Positions 1,304 to 12,394 of a stretch of DNA of 20,000 bases are shown here, piece by piece. A program made the translations under genes and the position numbers. This DNA comes from an uncultured virus (IMG/VR IMGVR_UViG_3300030106_002045) (Duplodnaviria; Heunggongvirae; Uroviricota; Caudoviricetes): the IMG/VR virus record IMGVR_UViG_3300030106_002045. One strand, written 5' to 3'. Each line of letters opens with the position of its first letter. Position 1 is the first letter of the stretch. The notes beneath the pieces are model-generated. The model did no database searches, had not been told where the DNA came from, and saw only the letters and a program-made list of their open reading frames with translations.

Positions 1304-1581
1304 TATTTTTTTCTTTTCTTTCTAATCGCTTCTTTACCTTTTTTAAATATAGAAGCAACTTTTGTTTTACCCATGACTTTAGCTCTTTGTTCTCCGACAG
1401 TTAAAATTTGTATTTTACGTGCATAAGGTTTTTTTATTCTTTTAACTTTAGCAACAGTTTTACGTGCATCAGCTGGTGTAGCAAATTTTATACCTACTGT
1501 GTCTTTAGGATTTTCGTCTGTATATAATCTCCTACCAGAACCTTTTGGTTTTTTTCCTGTTCCTTTTTTAGGGTCAGCCAT
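1303..1581 (-). CDS. Small basic hypothetical protein
   Basis: 92 aa, Lys/Arg-rich (MADPKKGTGKKPKGSGRRLYTDENP); TAATG-coupled to portal stop. Confidence 0.75.
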   Translation of the reverse strand: MADPKKGTGKKPKGSGRRLYTDENPKDTVGIKFATPADARKTVAKVKRIKKPYARKIQILTVGEQRAKVMGKTKVASIFKKGKEAIRKKRKK

Positions 1582-3890
1582 TACTTATCACGTTTTGCAA
1601 CTCTTGAAGCTGTTTCAACAATTTTAGCTTTTACTTCTGCGTCCTTTCTAGCTTGAGTTCTTTCTTTGTCTTTAACACCTTCAGCAAATCTCGCTTTTCT
1701 AATATTTAATTCTTCTGCTTTTAATTGTAATTGTGCAGCATCTTTTTGTCTTTCCATTTGTTCTTTTTGTTGTTCTGGACTTGGTGGCATAGACCCCATT
1801 AAACCTTGTGCAGCTTGTGCTGCTGCAGCAGCTATTCTATTTTCTTGTTCGATATTAATTTCTTGACTTGGCTCATCATTCATTTCTTTGTTAAATTCAC
1901 CAGATGAAGTAGGCATACCTTCTGGTACTTGAGCTTGCATTTGTTGTTGGTATAAATATGCCATATGTTGTCCTATATGAGCCATCATTGATGGATATAA
2001 AACTTCTTTAGCTTGTGGATTACCACCAAATCTTGGATCATTTATAAATTGTTGATGTACTATTATATGAGCTTGATGATCTTGATCTTCAAAAACTTTA
2101 ATTGGTTTACCATTTAATAATGCCATGTTTTCTGATACTGGATCTCGTCTTGGTGTTTCTTCATCTTCTATCATAAGTTCGTTATATTCTGGAACATTTA
2201 AAGCTTGTAAAAATCTTCTTGTTGCTTCTTTTACATTAATTATTTGTGGTGAAGATTGAGCTAGTTGTAAACCTGTTTGTGCTAAAGCTATTCTTTGTGC
2301 TTGAGAAAAAATATTAGGATCACTTACTGGTATTACATCTACTGCATCACTAAAATCTTTTCTTCTTATAATTTTCTTTTCTCCAATTACATCATATGGA
2401 TATTCATCATCTAAGTATTCTCCATTTAATTCATAAATTAATTTAAATTCTCTACCTTGAGCTTGGTGTAATCTTTTATGTATAGCACTAAATACTTTAG
2501 AACCTTGTTCTATTAAAGCGATGGTGGTTCCAACTGGACCGGAACCAGCGGAATCACCAATCATTGCATCTGCTATTGATGCAAAACGTCTTCCTGATTC
2601 AGTTAAAACGCCTAAAAGCTGTAAGAGAGTAGGTGATGGTTCTTTGAAAGGAAGAGGGATAAAACTCTTTCTAAGATCATCACCATAGGCTTCGACTTCT
2701 ACCCATTCACCAGGTGAAACAGTTATATCTCCACCTTCTATTCTTGCTCCTTTAGCTCTAAATCCTCCATTGAGGTTGGCAAAGGCAGCTGAATCTAGTA
2801 GAGCACGAAGTGCTCCAGTGCTTGCATGTTGCAGACCGCCGATCATTTGGATTAGGCCGAAACCATAAAAACCTAAACCAGGAAGATATTTATAATGTAT
2901 AAAATAAGTTCTTTTTCTTTTTAATGGATCATCTTCTTTCCAATTTCTTCTTATTGCTAAAACTACAGTGCTATCTTGGTCAACTGTTACAATGTAAGGT
3001 AAAGCTAAACCATTTTCATCTTCTCCTATATCTAAATTTGCGTGTATTTCTAAAATTGTATGTATCTTATCAGACATACTAGGTGTCATACCTTGTAATC
3101 TTTCCATTGTTTGTTCAACAGTTCCACCTTGATTTGAAGTTGTTTCAGTTTTACTTAATGGTACATCTTTATAAAATCCTTCTATTTGTCGTCTTTTAAT
3201 TTCGTTTCTTGAAAGTTTCATTACTTGAGTATATCTTTCAGATGTTTCTAAATCTGTATTATCATATGATATTACAAAATCTTCTGCTGGTACAAATACT
3301 GAACAAATTCTATCTAAAGAATTATCAAAATATATTTTTTTAAATGCAGAACCAGCTAAAGATAAATAAAATAACAACTGATCTAATTCATTAAAGTAGT
3401 CTTTTATTTGATTTGTTACTTGCCAATTCATAAAATCTTGAACACGTTGTGCTTGCTCTATTTTTTTATTTGAAGATTTACCAATCACTTGTGTTTTTAC
3501 TGGACCACCAGACGGAAAAAGTTCTGCTATTGCTCTTGCTTGAAACTGAGTTGCTGCCTCAGCCATTAATGGATGATGTACACCAGAAGCTCCCGGGAAA
3601 GGATCTTGTCTATCTTCTACAACGACACCTAACATTTTAAGACCTTTAGAATATTGATCTTCCCAATCTTTTCTAGATGATTTATCATCTTGATAAGCTT
3701 TAACTAAATCTCTACCAATACTATTTACTTCTTGATCTGTTAATTCTTCTGCTAAATTAGAATAATGATCTGATTCAAAAGCTTCTTCTTCTTTATCTGT
3801 TAAATCTGAATCGACTTCTACTTTAACTTTTTTACCTTTATCATCAGTAAATTCTAAATTTTTTTTATCTAATTCTACTTCTAAAGCCAT
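1581..3890 (-). CDS. Portal protein
   Basis: 769 aa. Motifs SRKDWEDQYSKGL, PFPGASGVHHPL, GSAFKKIYFD, YLPGLGFYGFGL, PVGTTIALIEQG and a C-terminal coiled coil. Lies between terminase and head genes. Confidence 0.88.
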   Translation of the reverse strand: MALEVELDKKNLEFTDDKGKKVKVEVDSDLTDKEEEAFESDHYSNLAEELTDQEVNSIGRDLVKAYQDDKSSRKDWEDQYSKGLKMLGVVVEDRQDPFPGASGVHHPLMAEAATQFQARAIAELFPSGGPVKTQVIGKSSNKKIEQAQRVQDFMNWQVTNQIKDYFNELDQLLFYLSLAGSAFKKIYFDNSLDRICSVFVPAEDFVISYDNTDLETSERYTQVMKLSRNEIKRRQIEGFYKDVPLSKTETTSNQGGTVEQTMERLQGMTPSMSDKIHTILEIHANLDIGEDENGLALPYIVTVDQDSTVVLAIRRNWKEDDPLKRKRTYFIHYKYLPGLGFYGFGLIQMIGGLQHASTGALRALLDSAAFANLNGGFRAKGARIEGGDITVSPGEWVEVEAYGDDLRKSFIPLPFKEPSPTLLQLLGVLTESGRRFASIADAMIGDSAGSGPVGTTIALIEQGSKVFSAIHKRLHQAQGREFKLIYELNGEYLDDEYPYDVIGEKKIIRRKDFSDAVDVIPVSDPNIFSQAQRIALAQTGLQLAQSSPQIINVKEATRRFLQALNVPEYNELMIEDEETPRRDPVSENMALLNGKPIKVFEDQDHQAHIIVHQQFINDPRFGGNPQAKEVLYPSMMAHIGQHMAYLYQQQMQAQVPEGMPTSSGEFNKEMNDEPSQEINIEQENRIAAAAAQAAQGLMGSMPPSPEQQKEQMERQKDAAQLQLKAEELNIRKARFAEGVKDKERTQARKDAEVKAKIVETASRVAKRDK

Positions 3891-7231: not shown

Positions 7232-7583
7232 CTTTCAGATCCTCCGTTGTACTTATTTTTTTGGAAACTATACTTTGAAATATCGAGTGTGTAAAGGTCG
7301 GAAGCATTAATTCGCTAATAGGATTATCGACATGGCCTGTAGACCACGAAATACATGGTACTCCTTTCTGGTCCCAAGCAACCAAAGCATAACCTTTTAC
7401 ATCAATTTTATCAGTAATTTTTATACAAGCATCGTGAAAAGCTTGAACAACTTCGTCATTTTGTTTATGTACAATTTCTTTTTTGGTAGGCCTTCGAGGA
7501 GTTACTCTCCATCTATCAAGAGTAATAATGTTTGTTTTTGCGGTATTTTCTTTTTTCGTCATAATCATCGTCCTCAGGATCAT
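7224..7583 (-). CDS. Hypothetical protein (start may be 7568 or 7562)
   Basis: ORF overlapping the terL 3' end; globular-looking C-terminal part. Confidence 0.65.
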   Translation of the reverse strand: MILRTMIMTKKENTAKTNIITLDRWRVTPRRPTKKEIVHKQNDEVVQAFHDACIKITDKIDVKGYALVAWDQKGVPCISWSTGHVDNPISELMLPTFTHSIFQSIVSKKISTTEDLKDE

Positions 7584-9018
7584 CTGGATGTGTTACTAAA
7601 AACCCATCACGCATTCTCATTAAAGCTTGTATACAAGTATCATGTATATCATCGTGCTTTCCATATGGGAATTGAGATGATTCTTCAATTACACTCTTAG
7701 TCCAATCTTCATCCAAAGTAAACACTAATCCACCTTCAAACATTGCAGCTACACTATGAGTTCTTGAAACTTTATCTCTTTCTGGAGTATAAGTAACTAC
7801 AGGTACTCCTGACCTTCTCATATCTTGTATAAGAGATTGACCACTAGCTCTTTTTTCTATTAATACTTGATCGGGCATCCATTCATCATAACTTTCTTGC
7901 GCACGTTTTCTTAAATCTGGATATTCTAATCTTTCTTTCCAGGCGTCTAATAATAAACATGCAGCATATGGAGTATTGTTTTCATCTCTTGCTGTAAATA
8001 CTCCCCATGTAGTACAAGCTGAATAGTCAGCAGAGGATCTTGTACTGAATGCTGTATCATAAGATTGTACAACATAACCTAATGTAGGAATTTTATCTCC
8101 TTCGTAAATATTCCACCAATCTTTTTTTATAATAGAACCTTCTTCGTTAGAGGGTCTTTGTTGATAAAGAGATTGCCATACACGTTCTCCTACTGTATTT
8201 TGTATTTTATCTAAATCTTCTTTTGAATAAGCATCTGGCCATAAAGCATTTCCTTCTTTATCAATCGCAGGTAAATCTAAAATTTTCCAATCTTCACTAG
8301 ATTCATTTAAAATATAACCCGCAAGGTCATCTTGGTGCCAACGAGTTTGTATTACTATAACTTTACCACCTGGTTGTAATCGAGTATATGCTACAGATTT
8401 ATACCACTCTAATAAATTTTTTCTTTGTACTTCTGATTCTGCGTCCTCTCTTCCTTTTATAGGATCATCTATAATTAATAAATGCGCACCTCTACCAGTA
8501 ATAGCTCCGCCTGCACCGACTGCTGCATAAGTTCCTCCATGTATAGTATGAAATCTTTTAGCTGATGTACTATCTGATCGAAGGGCCACTTGTGGAAATA
8601 CTTTGTTATAATCGTCAGATTGAAGTTGATTACGGACCTTTCGTCCAAAGTCATCAGCCAGTTCTTGAGCATATGTAGATTGAATTACAAATTCGTTTGG
8701 ATTATTACCAAGATACCAAGCAGGAAAAAATTCTGAGCATAACATAGATTTACCATGTCGAGGTGGCATAAAGACTGCTAGCCTTTTAATATCTCCTTTT
8801 TCTAAACTTTCTAAATTTTTTGCAATTAATTTTATATGCGCAGGTTCTTTATAACCAGGATACATATGTTTAGCATAAGCTAAAAAATTATTACGAGCTT
8901 TATAAGTAGATAATAAATTATTTAAATGTTCAATTAATTCACCTGCACGTTTATCACGTGTCTTTTGGTATATCTGAATAGCTGACTTTAATTTCTCTTT
9001 GATTTGAACTTCTTGCAT
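7516..9018 (-). CDS. terL: Terminase large subunit
   Basis: Walker A MPPRHGKS, Walker B LLIIDD, coupling motif QTRWH, nuclease motifs SYDTA, IEKRASG and FPYGKHDDIHD. Confidence 0.96.
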   Translation of the reverse strand: MQEVQIKEKLKSAIQIYQKTRDKRAGELIEHLNNLLSTYKARNNFLAYAKHMYPGYKEPAHIKLIAKNLESLEKGDIKRLAVFMPPRHGKSMLCSEFFPAWYLGNNPNEFVIQSTYAQELADDFGRKVRNQLQSDDYNKVFPQVALRSDSTSAKRFHTIHGGTYAAVGAGGAITGRGAHLLIIDDPIKGREDAESEVQRKNLLEWYKSVAYTRLQPGGKVIVIQTRWHQDDLAGYILNESSEDWKILDLPAIDKEGNALWPDAYSKEDLDKIQNTVGERVWQSLYQQRPSNEEGSIIKKDWWNIYEGDKIPTLGYVVQSYDTAFSTRSSADYSACTTWGVFTARDENNTPYAACLLLDAWKERLEYPDLRKRAQESYDEWMPDQVLIEKRASGQSLIQDMRRSGVPVVTYTPERDKVSRTHSVAAMFEGGLVFTLDEDWTKSVIEESSQFPYGKHDDIHDTCIQALMRMRDGFLVTHPDDPEDDDYDEKRKYRKNKHYYS

Positions 9019-9808
9019 TTTGTTGACCCATTCCTAATCCACCACTTTCTTTATATAACTTAAATTTTTCTGAAAGTAAAAAAAACGGTTGTCTTTTTTT
9101 CAAGATAACTTCTTTCCAAGCTTCTGATGGTTGTCCTATCTTATCTAGAAACCAAGCTAGTTTTGAAGCTTCTGCTAATCTTAGATTTACCATTTCTTGA
9201 TGATGTAGGTCTCCTTTTTCTTGTGGATTACCCTCGTTATATTTTCTTAATCTAAAAGTTTCATCATTATTATTACCAGTTATATCTGCTCTATCGTGAA
9301 TTACATTAATATCAACTTCTACCATTATATCTAATGCATAAGCAATTTCAGAGAGCCACGCATCATTTTGACCGTGTAGACTTATATGATCTAAACATCT
9401 AAACCAATCTCTTGGAAAACATGGAAAGATACTATAAGGATGTCCAGTTTGTTCTTTAAACTTTAATAAACAAAACTGATCTTCAAAATCCATAATCTTA
9501 TCATCCCAATTCTTAGTACACATTAAAGCATCGTCATTAAAGAACATTATCCATTTACCAGTTGAATATTGAGCTAATGTATTATTATATCTATGTAAAT
9601 TTTCGTAACCTATGGGATTAAATTGTAAAGCAATTTGATTTGGATATTTTGAATCTTTTAAATATTTAAAAGTTTCTAAGTCATCTTTATCTACACCGAA
9701 TAAGAATTGTAACTTATCGGGCTCTCTTGCATTATTGATTAATGACTCTACAGCTTTTTTTAATAAGAGCAATCTTTTACGAGTTGGTAAAAGTATAGAT
9801 ATGTTCAT
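8954..9808 (-). CDS. GT-A fold (family 2-like) glycosyltransferase; an alternative in-frame ATG at 9889 has an AGGAG SD
   Basis: N-terminal ISILLPTRKR strand, GVDKDD, and DxD-like WIMFFNDDAL; overlaps terL start by 65 nt. Confidence 0.8.
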   Translation of the reverse strand: MNISILLPTRKRLLLLKKAVESLINNAREPDKLQFLFGVDKDDLETFKYLKDSKYPNQIALQFNPIGYENLHRYNNTLAQYSTGKWIMFFNDDALMCTKNWDDKIMDFEDQFCLLKFKEQTGHPYSIFPCFPRDWFRCLDHISLHGQNDAWLSEIAYALDIMVEVDINVIHDRADITGNNNDETFRLRKYNEGNPQEKGDLHHQEMVNLRLAEASKLAWFLDKIGQPSEAWKEVILKKRQPFFLLSEKFKLYKESGGLGMGQQNARSSNQREIKVSYSDIPKDT

Positions 9809-9901
9809 GGATCCACAGTACTCAAATATAAATACAATAAAACAAAAATATGCCCGCCTTCCTCCCTGATACAACCAGTCTCCCGGCATATGTATCAACT
9901 C

Positions 9902-10543
9902 CTATTCTTTTTCTTTTATCTCGTAAAAAAATCTATCTGTATCATCTGTTACCCAATCTTTGTTTTCTACATTCCAGTCGTTTGTTTGGACTTTATAGTC
10001 TGGCACTTCGCTTCTCGTAGTGAATGAATTAACATTCCATAATACTCTATTATTTGGCTGAGCAGCAAAATTACCATTGTCAAGCTCCAATATATGAGCA
10101 CATTTATGCTCCTGAGGAATTTCAGAATGATCTGTATCAATAACATTGGGGTCAGGGTGACACCAATCAACAGTAAACAGATACTCACCTGTATAAAGTT
10201 TTTTATCTTTACCAAAATATTTAGCTCTTTGTCCTGTTAGAAAAGCAAACTCAGTAATGCTATGATGATAATCAAAGCTATTCCACAGCTCAAGTAAGTC
10301 GTTTTGCATATCTGGCACTTCTCGCCTTTCCATCTTCGCAGAAAAGAAGGCAGCAATTGGCAACCGCCAAAAGCACGCACCGTTCGGTAACATGATATTA
10401 AAAAGGATACCACGACCCTGTATACTTGTGAGACCGAAGATAACACAATCTTCGCTTTCTCCATGATGTTTTTGTTGGTCATATAAATACTCCTTGCGTA
10501 TTTGACAATATATTGGTGGAATGCTACTATTTAAAAAGGCCAT
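9902..10543 (-). CDS. Conserved-type marine phage hypothetical protein
   Basis: 213 aa, natural composition; motifs GACFWRLPIAAF, GEYLFTVDW, EHKCAHILELDNGNFAAQPNNR; function not recognised. Confidence 0.8.
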   Translation of the reverse strand: MAFLNSSIPPIYCQIRKEYLYDQQKHHGESEDCVIFGLTSIQGRGILFNIMLPNGACFWRLPIAAFFSAKMERREVPDMQNDLLELWNSFDYHHSITEFAFLTGQRAKYFGKDKKLYTGEYLFTVDWCHPDPNVIDTDHSEIPQEHKCAHILELDNGNFAAQPNNRVLWNVNSFTTRSEVPDYKVQTNDWNVENKDWVTDDTDRFFYEIKEKE

Positions 10544-10721
10544 TGTAAAGCTATATTACAAAAAAAAATATTTTTCTAGAGAAATTTATACGCATATAAG
10601 TCATTCTACACTAACTCTAGCTCTACCTCTAAGACTAACGCCAAATCGCCGCAAACTTTATACGAATTTTTATAAATTAAACTTAATACGAATTTTTAAA
10701 AAAAGTGAGAGAAAAAAAGAT

Positions 10722-10758
10722 AAAAAAAAACTAGCGTAAAATTAATTACGCTAGTTTT
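10722..10758 (-). terminator. Rho-independent terminator of the 129-aa gene
   Basis: Inverted repeat AAAACTAGCGTAA(10727-39)/TTACGCTAGTTTT(10746-58) with a 9-nt U tract on the minus strand, 15 nt after the stop codon. Confidence 0.85.
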
Positions 10759-10773
10759 ATTATTTAAATAATA

Positions 10774-11163
10774 TTAAAGACTTTTTATTTTTTCTTCGAA
10801 GAATTTAATATTTTCGATTATCGAATTATCGACTTTATTTTTTTTAATAAACTCTTTATTCGAGTTAATTAAATCTAAATATAAATCTTTTTTAGATTTA
10901 TCGATATACGAATTTAAATCGATTAATAAATTTACTTTTTTAAATCGATTATTTCTAGTCGTATCGTATTCTATATCGACTTTTCTATAATCGTTATTAA
11001 AAGCGTTTTCTATAGTAGTAGAAAATTTCGCCTTCTCGTAAATTATAAACGACTTAGTTTTATCTCGTTTATTATTAAATAATCTAAATAAAACTTTTTT
11101 ATCTTTAAACTCTCTAAAAGATAAAGCTATTTTATTCTCGATTATATTTTTCTTAGTAGTCAT
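10774..11163 (-). CDS. 129-aa protein in a CA/TG- and CC/GG-purged cassette; putative paralog of the 13649-14014 protein
   Basis: Has its own promoter, SD-like AGAAAGCGAG and terminator; gapless similarity of residues 30-71 to residues 56-97 of the 121-aa protein. Confidence 0.8.
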   Translation of the reverse strand: MTTKKNIIENKIALSFREFKDKKVLFRLFNNKRDKTKSFIIYEKAKFSTTIENAFNNDYRKVDIEYDTTRNNRFKKVNLLIDLNSYIDKSKKDLYLDLINSNKEFIKKNKVDNSIIENIKFFEEKIKSL

Positions 11164-11231
11164 TAGCTTTCTCGCTTTCTAATTCTTAAACTATTTTAAT
11201 TATTAAAATATTTAAATTTAAGAATTAACGA

Positions 11232-11260
11232 ATATTAAAAAATTTTTTTTAAAAAGTAAA
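11232..11260 (-). promoter_or_regulatory. Sigma70-like promoter of the 129-aa gene
   Basis: TTTACT(11260-55)-N17-TAATAT(11237-32). Confidence 0.65.
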
Positions 11261-11513
11261 TAGTTAATTTCTGTTGTTTTCGCTTGTAGATAGAAAGAAC
11301 AAAGATAGAACACTCGTTCTCGTTTCGTTCTCTTTAAAATAAAGTAAACAAAATCGATAACGTAAAAAATAAAAAAATAAAATCTTTTAATAAATAAAGT
11401 AACATAAGTATTATAATAAATTATTTATATCATTTTTATACGTTTTAATTTTAATTTATTAATTATTCTGTTTTGTCGGAAAAAGCTCTATCCTTAATTT
11501 TTTTTATTTCACG

Positions 11514-11615
11514 TGATCCTTGCGGATCAGCCCTGATCAACTAGATACTAGGATCAAGCTGGATCATCTAGGCTCATGCCACAACAAGCAACAGTCGCCT
11601 GCCACAACAAGCAAC
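11514..11615. repeat. Phased GATC cluster plus 16-bp direct repeat; candidate pac/terminus element
   Basis: GATC at 11515, 11525, 11535, 11552 and 11562 (GCTC at 11572); TGCCACAACAAGCAAC at 11577-92 and 11600-15; immediately downstream of terS. Confidence 0.7.
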
Positions 11616-11620
11616 CGCCG

Positions 11621-12070
11621 TCAATCTAGTTTATGTTCTGATTTGATTTGTTCTAGGTACTTGGCCAAAGCATCATCGTCCATGTTGTCTAGTGTTGAGT
11701 GCTGTACTTCCTTCTTTTCAACAAGGAACCCTAATAGCTGAGACTTCAACCTTATCGCATTGACTGCTGCTGTATATTGTTTCTTGCCACAAGCATCAAC
11801 ATACAGTTTATCTAGCTTTTCAACCTCTTTTGACACAGACTCACTGGTCAAGCGCCTAGTGTCAACACGCAATCTGTCTATATACTGGAGGATTTTATCT
11901 TTCTTTAAGTTCCGGGCAGCTTGTACGTGAGCAGAAGTTTCAGAGTAACCTGCTTCAACAGCCGCTTGTCTCTTACCTTTTCCTTGCGCTATACCCTCAC
12001 AAAACTTTTTTTCCATTGAGGATAAAGTCGCTTCGTTGGTTTGATGTATTTGGTCAATAGTTATCGCCAT
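11621..12070 (-). CDS. terS: Terminase small subunit
   Basis: HTH motif LSSMEKKFCEGIAQG..QAAVEAGYSETSAHVQAARNLKKDKILQYI, and AVNAIRLKSQLLG oligomerisation segment. Confidence 0.85.
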   Translation of the reverse strand: MAITIDQIHQTNEATLSSMEKKFCEGIAQGKGKRQAAVEAGYSETSAHVQAARNLKKDKILQYIDRLRVDTRRLTSESVSKEVEKLDKLYVDACGKKQYTAAVNAIRLKSQLLGFLVEKKEVQHSTLDNMDDDALAKYLEQIKSEHKLD

Positions 12071-12112
12071 ATTTATCCTAATATAGCGATTATTTTATGA
12101 TTGTAAATTGTA

Positions 12113-12394
12113 TTATAATCTCGATTTATGCCATGAAATTATATCTTTAACACCATGAAAATTTTTAAATTTAACATGCACACATCCTGTATGTCCATCA
12201 TCAATGTCAACAATAGTTTCGGGTACAACAGTTTGTTTACTATGGTAAACTGCTATGTTATAGCTTTCGTTTTTACCTCGACCTTGCAATCTGAAATCTT
12301 TTTCGTCTTGTTCAGTCATTACATAATCGCCATCAAGTATGCAATCTTCTACATATTTGTTTAACTTTTGTTTCATTATAGCTACAGGGTCCAT
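12113..12394 (-). CDS. Hypothetical early protein
   Basis: 93 aa; AGAAAGGAG SD. Confidence 0.75.
   Translation of the reverse strand: MDPVAIMKQKLNKYVEDCILDGDYVMTEQDEKDFRLQGRGKNESYNIAVYHSKQTVVPETIVDIDDGHTGCVHVKFKNFHGVKDIISWHKSRL

Follow-up and report, generated by a model that had tools for sequence, protein, structure and literature searches.

A phage transcription unit next to the small terminase gene that is almost free of the dinucleotides CA, TG, CC and GG

In the T-even phages, the glucosylation of hydroxymethylcytosine depends on a set of enzymes that consists of dCMP hydroxymethylase, dCTPase, dNMP kinase, and the alpha- and beta-glucosyltransferases. We know of no region of the T4 genome that is kept free of the phage's own mark and, to our knowledge, dependence of DNA glycosylation on the 3' neighbour of the modified base is undescribed. 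In other phages, marks are placed after replication at bases chosen by their dinucleotide context. According to the accessible text of the respective papers, TG-specific thymine hypermodification is found in the Pbunavirus phages F8 and 14-1 (PMC12191111) and in Acinetobacter phage SH-Ab 15599 (PMC13458397), the hypermodification contexts in phages M6, ViI and phiW-14 are TG and TC (PMC6449724), and there are T-dioxygenases specific for NTG or NTC (PMC13229309); within that text, none of the four papers mentions a motif-free gene cassette. On cytosine, GpC-specific C5-methyltransferases feed TET and glycosyltransferases (PMC8256090). Bulky groups in the major groove block bacterial RNA polymerase in vitro, whereas 5hmC and 5hmU are tolerated (PMC11550810).

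The DNA analysed here (hereinafter, the window) is a stretch of 20,000 nucleotides from an uncultured marine phage (IMG/VR record IMGVR_UViG_3300030106_002045), in which one small cassette, located between the gene for the small terminase subunit (terS) and the structural genes, is purged of CA, TG, CC and GG, to which we refer as forbidden steps. Within 564 bp (10708-11271; the core of the island, to which no strand is assigned, is given as 10707..11271), there is one CA, no TG, one CC and no GG, along with 23 CG. The only CA/TG of the core is the CA at 11161, that is, the minus-strand ATG start codon, so that a single forbidden site is tolerated. The wider zone (10651..11477, likewise without strand), in which CA/TG is reduced, contains a single CC/GG in total, the CC at 11031, and even this is a minority variant that is replaced by CT in most related contigs of runs X5 and X10 (C>T at place 11032). 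These counts, which an earlier note on this DNA had obtained by hand, were all reproduced on recount, and the expectation of a few dozen CA/TG from base composition also holds: the 500-bp segment at 10751 contains one CA or TG compared to 36.9 expected (observed to expected ratio, O/E, 0.03). In the same segment, one CC or GG is observed compared to 9.1 expected, whereas CG is enriched (21 compared to 4.2, O/E 4.9) and the GC content is 19% versus about 31% elsewhere. TA is neither enriched nor depleted (O/E 0.98), and the GC dinucleotide is not depleted in the island (7 observed, about 5 expected). The longest CA/TG-free gap, 455 bp, belongs to the island, and the next one, outside of it, spans 68 bp; for CC/GG, two gaps of 447 and 382 bp stand out, and the next longest is 158 bp. 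The rest of the genome contains about 160 forbidden steps per kb. The purge is far beyond chance. It is not an assembly artefact either, a possibility that the earlier note had raised against itself: pieces of the island were found with 0 differences in Logan contigs from runs X1 and X3 (the same study and, possibly, the window's own source), and dozens of IMG/VR contigs that derive from other samples contain orthologous islands.

The purged stretch is one transcription unit that consists of a promoter-like site, a minus-strand open reading frame (ORF) for 129 amino acids and a terminator. The promoter-like site, TTTACT-N17-TAATAT (11232..11260, minus strand), was read from the sequence; both hexamers consist of allowed steps, unlike the consensus TTGACA. 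The TTTACT hexamer is also found upstream of the purged copies in some relatives, in locus L060 and in the distant lineage G010. The ribosome-binding region, AGAAAGCGAGAAAG (11167..11180, minus strand), was similarly read from the sequence and lacks GG; the block TAGAAAG..AGAAA directly upstream of the ATG is conserved in 15 aligned loci. The intrinsic terminator (10727..10758, minus strand) consists of a hairpin, the stem of which is AAAACTAGCGTAA / TTACGCTAGTTTT, and a T run after it, and contains allowed steps only; in the copy of normal composition in L060 (see below), the terminator stem is GGGAGCGAG/CTCGCTCCC instead. Of the non-coding signals to which the earlier note had extended the rule, the terminator was detected by a terminator scan, and both TTTACT and the GG-free ribosome-binding region are present, but the consensus promoter scan, at its threshold, neither scored nor listed the TTTACT site, so the promoter is a feature that we infer.

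Past the terminator and within the purged zone, TCGTATWAAGTTT occurs in two exact copies that are 26 bp apart (10653..10691, minus strand) and are the window's only exact matches to this motif; the motif also follows the terminator in L060 and in the distant G010. Between terS and the island lies a GC-rich (44%) boundary region (11478..11620, no strand) with direct repeats and GATC-containing hairpins (GATCCGCAAGGATC) that is duplicated along with the cassette in two-copy phages and, possibly, is a pac site or a regulatory region; an Rfam search of positions 10300-12300 yielded no match. The upstream neighbour (11621..12070, minus strand) matches PF03592 and phrog_51/641, which corroborates the earlier placement of the cassette next to terS. 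The downstream neighbour (9902..10543, minus strand) belongs to the phrog_3704 family, is missing from the distant lineage that has the island, and produced no sequence match in the PDB and no match in the Atlas. A search of the phage collection matched only 120 bp of a neighbouring gene, in Pelagibacter phage HTVC023P, where the synteny differs.

The ORF itself (P0001, 10774..11163, minus strand) encodes a basic protein (pI 9.7) that is written in a 13-letter amino-acid alphabet. As the earlier note had pointed out, this protein contains no C, G, H, P, Q or W, and no M after Met1; these seven residues account for 21.9% of the products of the window's other genes, and the probability of finding none in 128 residues is about 2e-14. 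The AF2 model is confident (pLDDT 89.1), yet neither the sequence (Pfam, PHROGs, NCBIfam) nor the fold (PDB by Foldseek; VIA wide, best Z 4.1; BFVD) has a match. There are 1644 related protein clusters, all unnamed. The protein evolves faster than the terminase subunit, with 45-100% identity across relatives compared to 80-100% for terS, and the ORF is undamaged in all 103 of 103 complete copies.

The earlier note had suggested looking for the same island beside terS in related phage contigs, and there it was found, in an abundant group of ocean phages and also in a distant lineage (terL 64-69% identical) that obeys the rule. At most two forbidden steps are present in 43 of the 75 distinct orthologous ORFs, with nucleotide identity down to 56%, and the genomes G002, G004, G010 and G011 each contain one island. 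In 32 orthologous loci, the CA/TG O/E is 0.00-0.12 over a zone that starts 100 bp before the ATG and extends 100 bp beyond the stop codon, and the CC/GG O/E between -100 and -200 is 0.21-0.24; the purge spans about 50 bp of untranscribed promoter DNA as well as DNA beyond the terminator. The island borders match the path of RNA polymerase, from -100 of the ATG to +100 past the stop. The choice of synonymous codons is equally telling. When two-fold degenerate codons ending in a pyrimidine were sorted by the following base in the 43 distinct purged ORFs, 99% of those before G ended in C (baseline 21%), compared to 0% before A (baseline 16%) and 0% before C (baseline 22%), whereas before T the fraction was 17%, close to the baseline of 18%. 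Synonymous codon choice follows the rule exactly, and the rule acts on DNA, not on composition. Of the possible synonymous transitions, 64% would make a forbidden step, whereas only 10 such steps are present in 17,181 nt of sequences that are 56-100% identical; the rule is under maintenance across relatives. Together, the codon data, the conservation among orthologs and the borders in the 32 loci confirm the earlier suggestion of a DNA-level constraint that covers the coding and non-coding parts of the whole transcription unit and is actively maintained.

A second version of the gene, free of the constraint, contains about 40 forbidden steps and has a promoter-like site and a terminator to itself; it is located 0.5 kb upstream in 19 loci and, additionally, in G010 and G011. 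Because this normal-composition twin exists, the rule belongs to the cassette and not to the protein. Some lineages retain only a normal-like copy, and none of their long contigs extends to the enzyme cluster described below. Several ways to account for the distribution of purged and relaxed copies were considered and dropped. Intermediate copies are not recombinants of normal and purged ones, given that their forbidden steps are scattered rather than clustered. A rule that applies to the template strand only was abandoned because the CA and TG classes relax alike at synonymous sites, and the TG deficit in relaxed copies stems from amino-acid content. The idea that the purge requires the adjacent GT2-like or phrog_3704 genes was discarded as well since both occur in purged and relaxed loci, and both are missing from the island-bearing G010 and G011.

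An enzyme cluster that encodes a C5-methyltransferase, a MazG-like protein, a beta-glucosyltransferase (BGT)-like protein, a P-loop kinase-like protein, a thymidylate synthase (TS)-like protein and dCMP deaminase is present in 6 of the 6 long genomes that cover the region, among them the distant island-bearing lineage. The best PDB relative of the TS homologue is the CMP 5-hydroxymethylase MilA (9.4e-19), compared to 1e-10 or weaker for thymidylate synthases, and its score of 51 bits is far below the NCBIfam thymidylate synthase cut-off of 327 bits. An aspartate of this protein aligns with the asparagine of the TS motif PFN, the residue that specifies uracil in thymidylate synthases. Judging from these sequence features, the TS homologue looks cytosine-type, so that the phages appear to share with T4 a TS homologue that acts on a cytosine nucleotide. 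The 345-aa protein encoded next to it is predicted to adopt the GT-B fold (AF2 pLDDT 77.7), with T4 beta-glucosyltransferase as the top Foldseek match, at modest scores (E 1.1e-5, TM 0.54 with a range of 0.51-0.56, 11-13% identity), and with PF09198 as the Atlas lead at 0.95; going by the model, it folds like a T4 beta-glucosyltransferase-like enzyme. The MazG-like protein contains a PRA-PH domain (3.6e-12), the P-loop protein shows a weak dTMP-kinase likeness, and the methyltransferase motif is NPPC; neither the P-loop protein nor the 345-aa protein has a sequence match in the PDB. There was no Pfam match to TET/JBP, and the 2OG oxygenases that were found belong to other families and are missing from G010 and G011. 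Among the Pfam- or PHROGs-scanned ORFs of G002 and G003, no phage RNA polymerase was detected. Loss of the enzyme cluster as the cause of relaxation was also considered and dropped, on the evidence of G007, a close relative of G002, in which the cluster is intact (84-95% identity) and the cassette is partly relaxed, with 12 forbidden steps; thus, relaxation does not need cluster loss.

The reading that we favour, with a probability of roughly 0.45, is that the sequence of the cassette keeps it clear of a context-specific hypermodification that the phage would apply to cytosines elsewhere in its genome. Such a context-specific modification had been offered in the earlier note as an alternative; it is now favoured by the apparently cytosine-type TS homologue, the BGT-like enzyme and the C5-methyltransferase, and by the fact that both forbidden pairs consist of a 5'-C followed by A or C. 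Also in its favour are the codon-level rule and its maintenance, the position of the borders, the single island per genome, the normal-composition twin, the lack of a recognised phage RNA polymerase in the scanned ORFs of G002 and G003, and the published dinucleotide-specific marks. Under this hypothesis, the phage probably replaces or decorates cytosine: the TS homologue would produce a 5-substituted dCMP, and the glucosyltransferase-like enzyme would add a sugar on the DNA, with the C5-methyltransferase also encoded. The bulky step would depend on the 3' neighbour and hit C before A or C, a rule that, when read on both strands, translates into exactly CA, CC, TG and GG. Removal of all these sites between a point some 50 bp before the start site and the DNA just beyond the terminator would leave this gene as near-plain DNA in the virion. 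The host RNA polymerase could then bind and read the plain cassette at once or, in another version, it would be out of reach of defences by which modified bases are bound, cut or excised; in either case, the basic 129-aa protein might be the first or guaranteed product of infection. The data establish the purge with its borders and conservation, the rule in codon choice, the twin and the presence of the enzyme genes; from these we infer the DNA modification itself, the context specificity of the mark, when the gene is expressed and what its protein does. Several observations speak against this reading. The four steps abound in every other gene of the phage, early genes among them, and replacement of cytosine before replication would leave the C5-methyltransferase without an evident role. 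The cassette of G007 is partly relaxed in spite of the intact enzyme cluster, and the one TG of the start codon is tolerated. The genome-wide counts of 4-bp palindromes give a weak signal, with CCGG and GGCC not depleted and CGCG nearly absent. Furthermore, Pbunavirus 14-1 has no TG/CA-free island (its longest gap is 85 bp); since this phage is reported to be TG-marked, a context-specific mark alone does not produce an island.

A different possibility, which we consider unlikely, is that the cassette is the first DNA to enter the cell, in the manner of the T5 first-step transfer or the T7 leading end, and carries an anti-defence gene, and that, purged of the short words read by a host factor, it evades a nuclease or sensor of the host or a competitor directly, with phage modification having no role; the earlier note had raised such a first-injected segment. 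The cassette is, indeed, self-contained and adjoins terS, and the faster evolution of its protein relative to its neighbours is typical of anti-defence genes; besides, contigs often break nearby, with G011 ending 179 bp after the ORF, G007 starting 255 bp before it and, by an informal tally, a contig end within 1.5 kb upstream in about 33 of 76 usable loci. However, the IMG/VR records are listed as linear without end repeats, and the island of G002 lies inside its 48.9-kb contig, at 12 kb. Nor is any nuclease known that has a two-base target and would spare the rest of the phage genome, where forbidden steps abound. Evasion of classical restriction, as the earlier note had considered, is not supported: TCGA, ATCGAT and CTAG, all common restriction palindromes, occur in abundance within the island, the depletion of 4-6 bp palindromes that marks restriction avoidance is not seen there, and a forbidden step is part of only 4 of the 16 four-base palindromes.

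The purge could also be envisaged as a mutational footprint, in which selection preserves only the protein while C (or A) is continually converted wherever it follows C, either by a deaminase with this context specificity or by hypermutation coupled to transcription. The borders do coincide with a transcription unit, the GC content falls to 19%, and deamination of A and C after C might be expected to leave C before G or T only. We find this scenario highly improbable because the normal twin, only 0.5 kb away and with the same type of promoter, is untouched, the deamination product TA is not enriched, and both strands are purged alike, untranscribed promoter DNA included. Moreover, the use of NNC|G in place of NNT|G in 99% of cases needs a T-to-C change or retention rather than deamination, and the ORF is intact in every sequence even though such conversion would turn CAA, CAG and TGG into stops. 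A DNA deaminase was not recognised, the sole deaminase being of the dCMP type, and the TA excess, strand bias and damaged frames of a RIP- or APOBEC-like footprint were not observed. Least probable, in our opinion, is a physical or RNA-level constraint, such as the need for an AT-rich unwinding element or an R-loop origin, for keeping a nucleoid protein away or attracting it, or for an mRNA that escapes an RNase by lacking CA, CC, UG and GG. The extreme AT-richness, the promoter and an adjacent repeat region that could be an origin or a pac site are compatible with such a constraint, and the four steps are absent from the mRNA as well. Nevertheless, these steps comprise two reverse-complement pairs, which points to duplex DNA, and some 50 bp of untranscribed promoter DNA and the post-terminator DNA are purged, too. 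The most flexible step, TA, is as frequent as expected and CG is more frequent, and there is no asymmetry between the strands in the relaxation of CA and TG at synonymous sites. Given that the protein is conserved and well folded, the DNA of the cassette is not merely structural.

A broader generalization of the favoured reading, namely, that context-hypermodifying phages spell out a pioneer gene with a restricted set of dinucleotides to keep it as plain DNA, and that the forbidden set then reads out the specificity of the enzyme, is in our view less likely than not. It would predict a cytosine mark, probably a glycosylated 5-substituted cytosine, only on C before A or C. If the reading is true, a virus can shield a single gene from the chemistry of its own DNA through recoding, at the cost of seven amino acids, and the paired normal and purged twins would represent a new form of epigenetic bet-hedging in viruses. 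Attention would be drawn to a small, abundant protein family whose expression would have to be guaranteed at the start of infection in very abundant marine bacteria, which would make it a candidate key to host takeover or counter-defence. There would also be a computational route from metagenomes, without cultures, to modified phage genomes and to the prediction of their motifs, and a new specificity class of DNA-modifying enzymes, useful as tools, would be predicted. Should the reading fail, a near-absolute, ancient constraint still demands explanation. The earlier note knew of no case of purging at the dinucleotide level, and a full-text literature search likewise found no description of such a cassette.

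Among the known systems, those of thymidine hypermodification resemble the present one in that the mark is set by a two-base context, with TG/CA among the contexts purged here, and in that the enzymes are encoded, together with a TS homologue and a P-loop kinase, in clusters for nucleotide metabolism. They differ in that the TS homologue described here looks cytosine-type, with its Asp, and in that CC/GG is purged as well. In the pathways that combine C5-methyltransferases, TET-like dioxygenases and glycosyltransferases (PMC8256090; bioRxiv 10.1101/2023.12.21.572611), uncultured marine phages similarly encode a C5-methyltransferase homologue and glycosyltransferases. The GpC pathways and CmoX, a GC-specific carboxymethyltransferase (PMC12783734), share with our proposal a cytosine mark limited to a dinucleotide context. 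By contrast, GC is not depleted in the island and a TET/JBP match is lacking, and CmoX contains SPPC where the methyltransferase here has NPPC.

The T-even system of hydroxymethylcytosine glucosylation is mirrored by the apparent cytosine-type TS homologue, the pyrophosphohydrolase, the kinase-like protein and dCMP deaminase, and by a GT-B enzyme whose best structural match is T4 BGT; the differences are the low sequence identity to that enzyme and the dependence on the 3' neighbour, which here is conjectural. The T5 pre-early region and the T7 leading end are likewise small, self-contained units of the early type that have their own promoter, are depleted of targets and are suspected to act first. 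There, however, specific restriction sites are missing and staged entry at a fixed end is proven, whereas here four dinucleotides are missing and the palindromes remain. Finally, as in the palindrome avoidance of phages, selection removes short DNA words that are read by enzymes; but palindrome avoidance is normally genome-wide, partial and directed at words of 4-6 bp, whereas the purge described here is local, almost absolute, directed at words of 2 bp, and costs the encoded protein seven amino acids.

On recount, all the dinucleotide counts of the earlier note were reproduced exactly. The stretch 10708-11271 contains a single CA (at 11161, the start codon of the minus-strand gene), no TG, a single CC (at 11031), no GG and 23 CG, and only one CC/GG is found in the whole of 10651-11477. 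In the 500 bp from 10751, one CA+TG is observed vs 36.9 expected from base composition and one CC+GG vs 9.1 expected, and CG is in excess (21 vs 4.2 expected); the GC content of this segment is 19%, compared with about 31% elsewhere in the window. Neither a recurrence of similar gaps nor an assembly artefact, the possibilities raised earlier, accounts for the pattern: CA/TG-free gaps reach 455 bp in the island and do not exceed 68 bp elsewhere in the window, and pieces of the island occur with no differences in Logan contigs of two sequencing runs, both from one study that is possibly the source of the window. At 11031-11032, CC is a minority variant, with T at 11032 in most of the related contigs of two further runs (X5 and X10). 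The 129-aa product, a basic protein (pI 9.7), contains no C, G, H, P, Q or W and no M after the first residue, a set that makes up 21.9% of the residues in other genes.

All genes around the island are on the minus strand, in the transcriptional order terS (11621-12070), the island, the genes for a phrog_3704 protein (9902-10543) and a GT2-like protein (8954-9898), terL (7516-9018), portal (1581-3890) and, last, GroES. The island itself comprises a promoter-like TTTACT-N17-TAATAT (11260-11232), read off the sequence and unscored by the promoter scan, a ribosome-binding region without GG, the 129-aa ORF (11163-10774) and a terminator hairpin detected by a terminator scan (10758-10727), so that, as proposed earlier, the rule extends to non-coding signals, promoter DNA included. 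Directly past the terminator, on the minus strand, are two exact copies, 26 bp apart, of the 13-mer TCGTATWAAGTTT (10691-10653), with no other exact matches in the window; the motif is also kept in the related contig L060 (2690-2740) and in the genome G010 (about 59700-59740), the latter from a lineage where identity of the cassette protein is down to about 50%, and may be a candidate operator or phage-specific promoter for the structural genes. Between terS and the island lies a GC-rich region of 143 bp (11478-11620) with several GATC hairpins (GATCCGCAAGGATC, GCAA loop) and direct repeats of the TTGAC type. It had no match in an Rfam search, is duplicated along with the cassette in two-copy phages (L060 1100-1180 and 1718-1805), and may serve as a pac site, origin or regulatory region. 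A repeat, AGAAC(A/G)AAAC(G)AGAAC, is conserved about 130-170 bp upstream of the ATG in the aligned loci (11300-11345 in the window, minus strand), and the window copy has CG where relatives read CA. The contigs of L033, L057, L058, L074, L159, L161, G003, G007 and G011 stop at most a few hundred bases away from the cassette or terS; contig ends near the cassette are possibly real genome ends, or are due to the duplicated repeats or to low coverage of DNA with 18% GC.

The island is real and conserved. A search with its protein detected orthologous cassettes adjoining terS, many of them purged, in more than 115 IMG/VR stretches, the comparison with relatives that the earlier note had suggested, and 1644 related protein clusters, all unnamed and all marine, are present in a large collection. 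Among 75 distinct ORFs (103 complete ones), 43 have at most 2 of the forbidden steps CA, TG, CC and GG, start codon included, 13 have 3-10, 14 have 12-22 and 5 have 28-41. The 43 purged ORFs, with DNA identity of 56-100% (median 80%), together contain 10 forbidden steps beyond the start codon in 17,181 nt; in these ORFs, 64% of the possible synonymous transitions and 40% of the transversions would create a forbidden step. In 32 loci, complete depletion covers the ORF together with 100 bp on either side (ahead of the ATG and beyond the stop) and fades across a further 100-250 bp outward, borders that agree with the earlier claim that a whole transcription unit is purged; the fully depleted span is the DNA that RNA polymerase touches, untranscribed promoter DNA included. 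Exactly one island is present in each of the long genomes G002, G004, G010 and G011. The latter two, 99-100% complete, represent a distant lineage (terL 64-69% and terS 53% identical), and between lineages the purged genes share 45-52% identity; therefore, the rule is old. Partial relaxation is seen in some lineages with a single copy, where the forbidden steps are spread over the gene; in the tree, these copies nest among fully purged relatives.

Whether a synonymous codon ends in C or T is set, in the purged ORFs, solely by the next base: C-ending codons make up 99% before G (baseline 21%), 0% before A (16%), 0% before C (22%) and 17% before T (18%). In the four-fold degenerate ACN, TCN and GCN codons, A and C endings are lost, leaving T in about 72% and G in about 27% of cases. 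The excess of CG is a by-product: NNC|GNN is forced and the decay of NCG via G-to-A is blocked. The forbidden steps form two reverse-complement pairs which, together with the purge of non-transcribed DNA, points to duplex DNA rather than RNA. In whole contigs (41-56 kb), CGCG is nearly absent, with 0, 3, 0 and 0 copies in G002, G003, G004 and G005 (observed/expected 0-0.3), and CCGG and GGCC are not depleted.

In 19 loci, two tandem cassettes follow terS, the upstream twin having about 40 forbidden steps and a normal composition (GC 0.30) and the downstream copy having no forbidden steps (GC 0.18). In L060, each copy comes with its own terminator, a promoter-like TTTACT site and the repeat region, the terminator stem of the normal copy being GG/CC-rich. 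The same layout is seen in G010 and G011, where the twin and purged proteins are only 33% identical. Sites with A, T, N or S in the purged protein correspond to P or Q in the twin; therefore, the restriction belongs to the cassette, not to the protein. Three apparent normal orthologs (L095, L119 and L124) were rejected, being upstream twins on truncated contigs.

A conserved gene cluster adjoins the DNA polymerase in G002 (L133 5496-9870) and G003 (L135 13962-18319) and encodes, in this order, a dCMP deaminase, a thymidylate synthase homolog, a P-loop kinase-like protein, a 345-aa GT-B protein, a MazG-like (pyrophosphohydrolase-like) protein and a C5-cytosine methyltransferase (PF00145). All six genes were found in 6 of 6 long genomes covering the region (G002, G003, G007, G008, G010 and G011). 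The synthase homolog is closest to the CMP 5-hydroxymethylase MilA (9.4e-19, vs 1e-10 for true synthases), scores far under the NCBIfam thymidylate synthase cut-offs and has Asp where the PFN motif has Asn; Asp at this position (Asp179 of T4 dCMP hydroxymethylase vs Asn177 of thymidylate synthase) marks a cytosine substrate, and the homolog looks to be of the cytosine type. The 345-aa protein has a predicted GT-B fold (model from 23 homologs, pLDDT 77.7), with T4 beta-glucosyltransferase as the top structural match at modest scores (E 1.1e-5, TM 0.51-0.56). In some lineages, the cluster is joined by UDP-glucose dehydrogenase, NAD synthase, an epimerase/dehydratase and a carbamoyltransferase; taken together, these genes suggest that the DNA of an abundant group of marine phages contains glycosylated cytosine. 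G010 and G011 lack UDP-glucose dehydrogenase, NAD synthase, the GT2-like gene and phrog_3704. No phage RNA polymerase was detected among the ORFs scanned in G002 and G003.

The likeliest meaning of the cassette, at a probability of roughly 0.45, is that it is kept free of a putative context-specific cytosine hypermodification. Read on the appropriate strand, each forbidden pair begins with C, so that the mark would sit on a cytosine picked by its 3' neighbor, and the forbidden set would predict its specificity, namely, C followed by A or C. Against this reading, G007, a genome near G002, carries an intact cluster (84-95% identity) and yet has 12 forbidden steps in its cassette; in Pbunavirus 14-1, where the T of TG is reportedly modified, TG/CA-free stretches do not exceed 85 bp; all other phage genes are full of the four steps; one TG is retained in the start codon; the scheme offers no obvious role for the C5-methyltransferase; and the palindrome statistics give no more than a weak hint.

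That the cassette is first-entering DNA that directly avoids a host nuclease seems rather improbable: contigs do frequently break near it, with an end at most 1.5 kb upstream in about 33 of 76 usable loci (an informal tally), but restriction palindromes are plentiful inside the island, which also tells against the evasion of host restriction suggested earlier, and we know of no two-base nuclease that would spare the remaining phage genome. A deaminase footprint is unlikely, given that NNC|G is favored, the reading frame is always intact, TA shows no enrichment and the twin, at a distance of 0.5 kb, has been left untouched. A constraint acting purely on structure or on the RNA is hard to square with a purge that is strand-symmetric and extends to promoter DNA.

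A search of the full-text literature found no description of a motif-free gene cassette and, as far as that search reaches, the island is undescribed; nor do the relevant passages of the papers cited below mention a motif-free gene. A different composition bias is seen in Pseudomonas phage 14-1 (L157/L158, about 50645-51272 of the record), where about 560 bp in ORF66 lack AT and TA, these gaps being by far the longest of their kind in that genome. Dinucleotide-specific post-replicative marks are established on thymine at TG or TC (PMC12191111, PMC13458397, PMC6449724, PMC13229309) and on cytosine at GpC (PMC8256090, bioRxiv 10.1101/2023.12.21.572611, PMC12783734), thymidylate synthase homologs produce 5-hydroxy-dCMP for arabinosylation (PMC13326640), and bulky major-groove groups block the RNA polymerases of E. 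coli and B. subtilis, whereas 5hmC and 5hmU are tolerated (PMC11550810).
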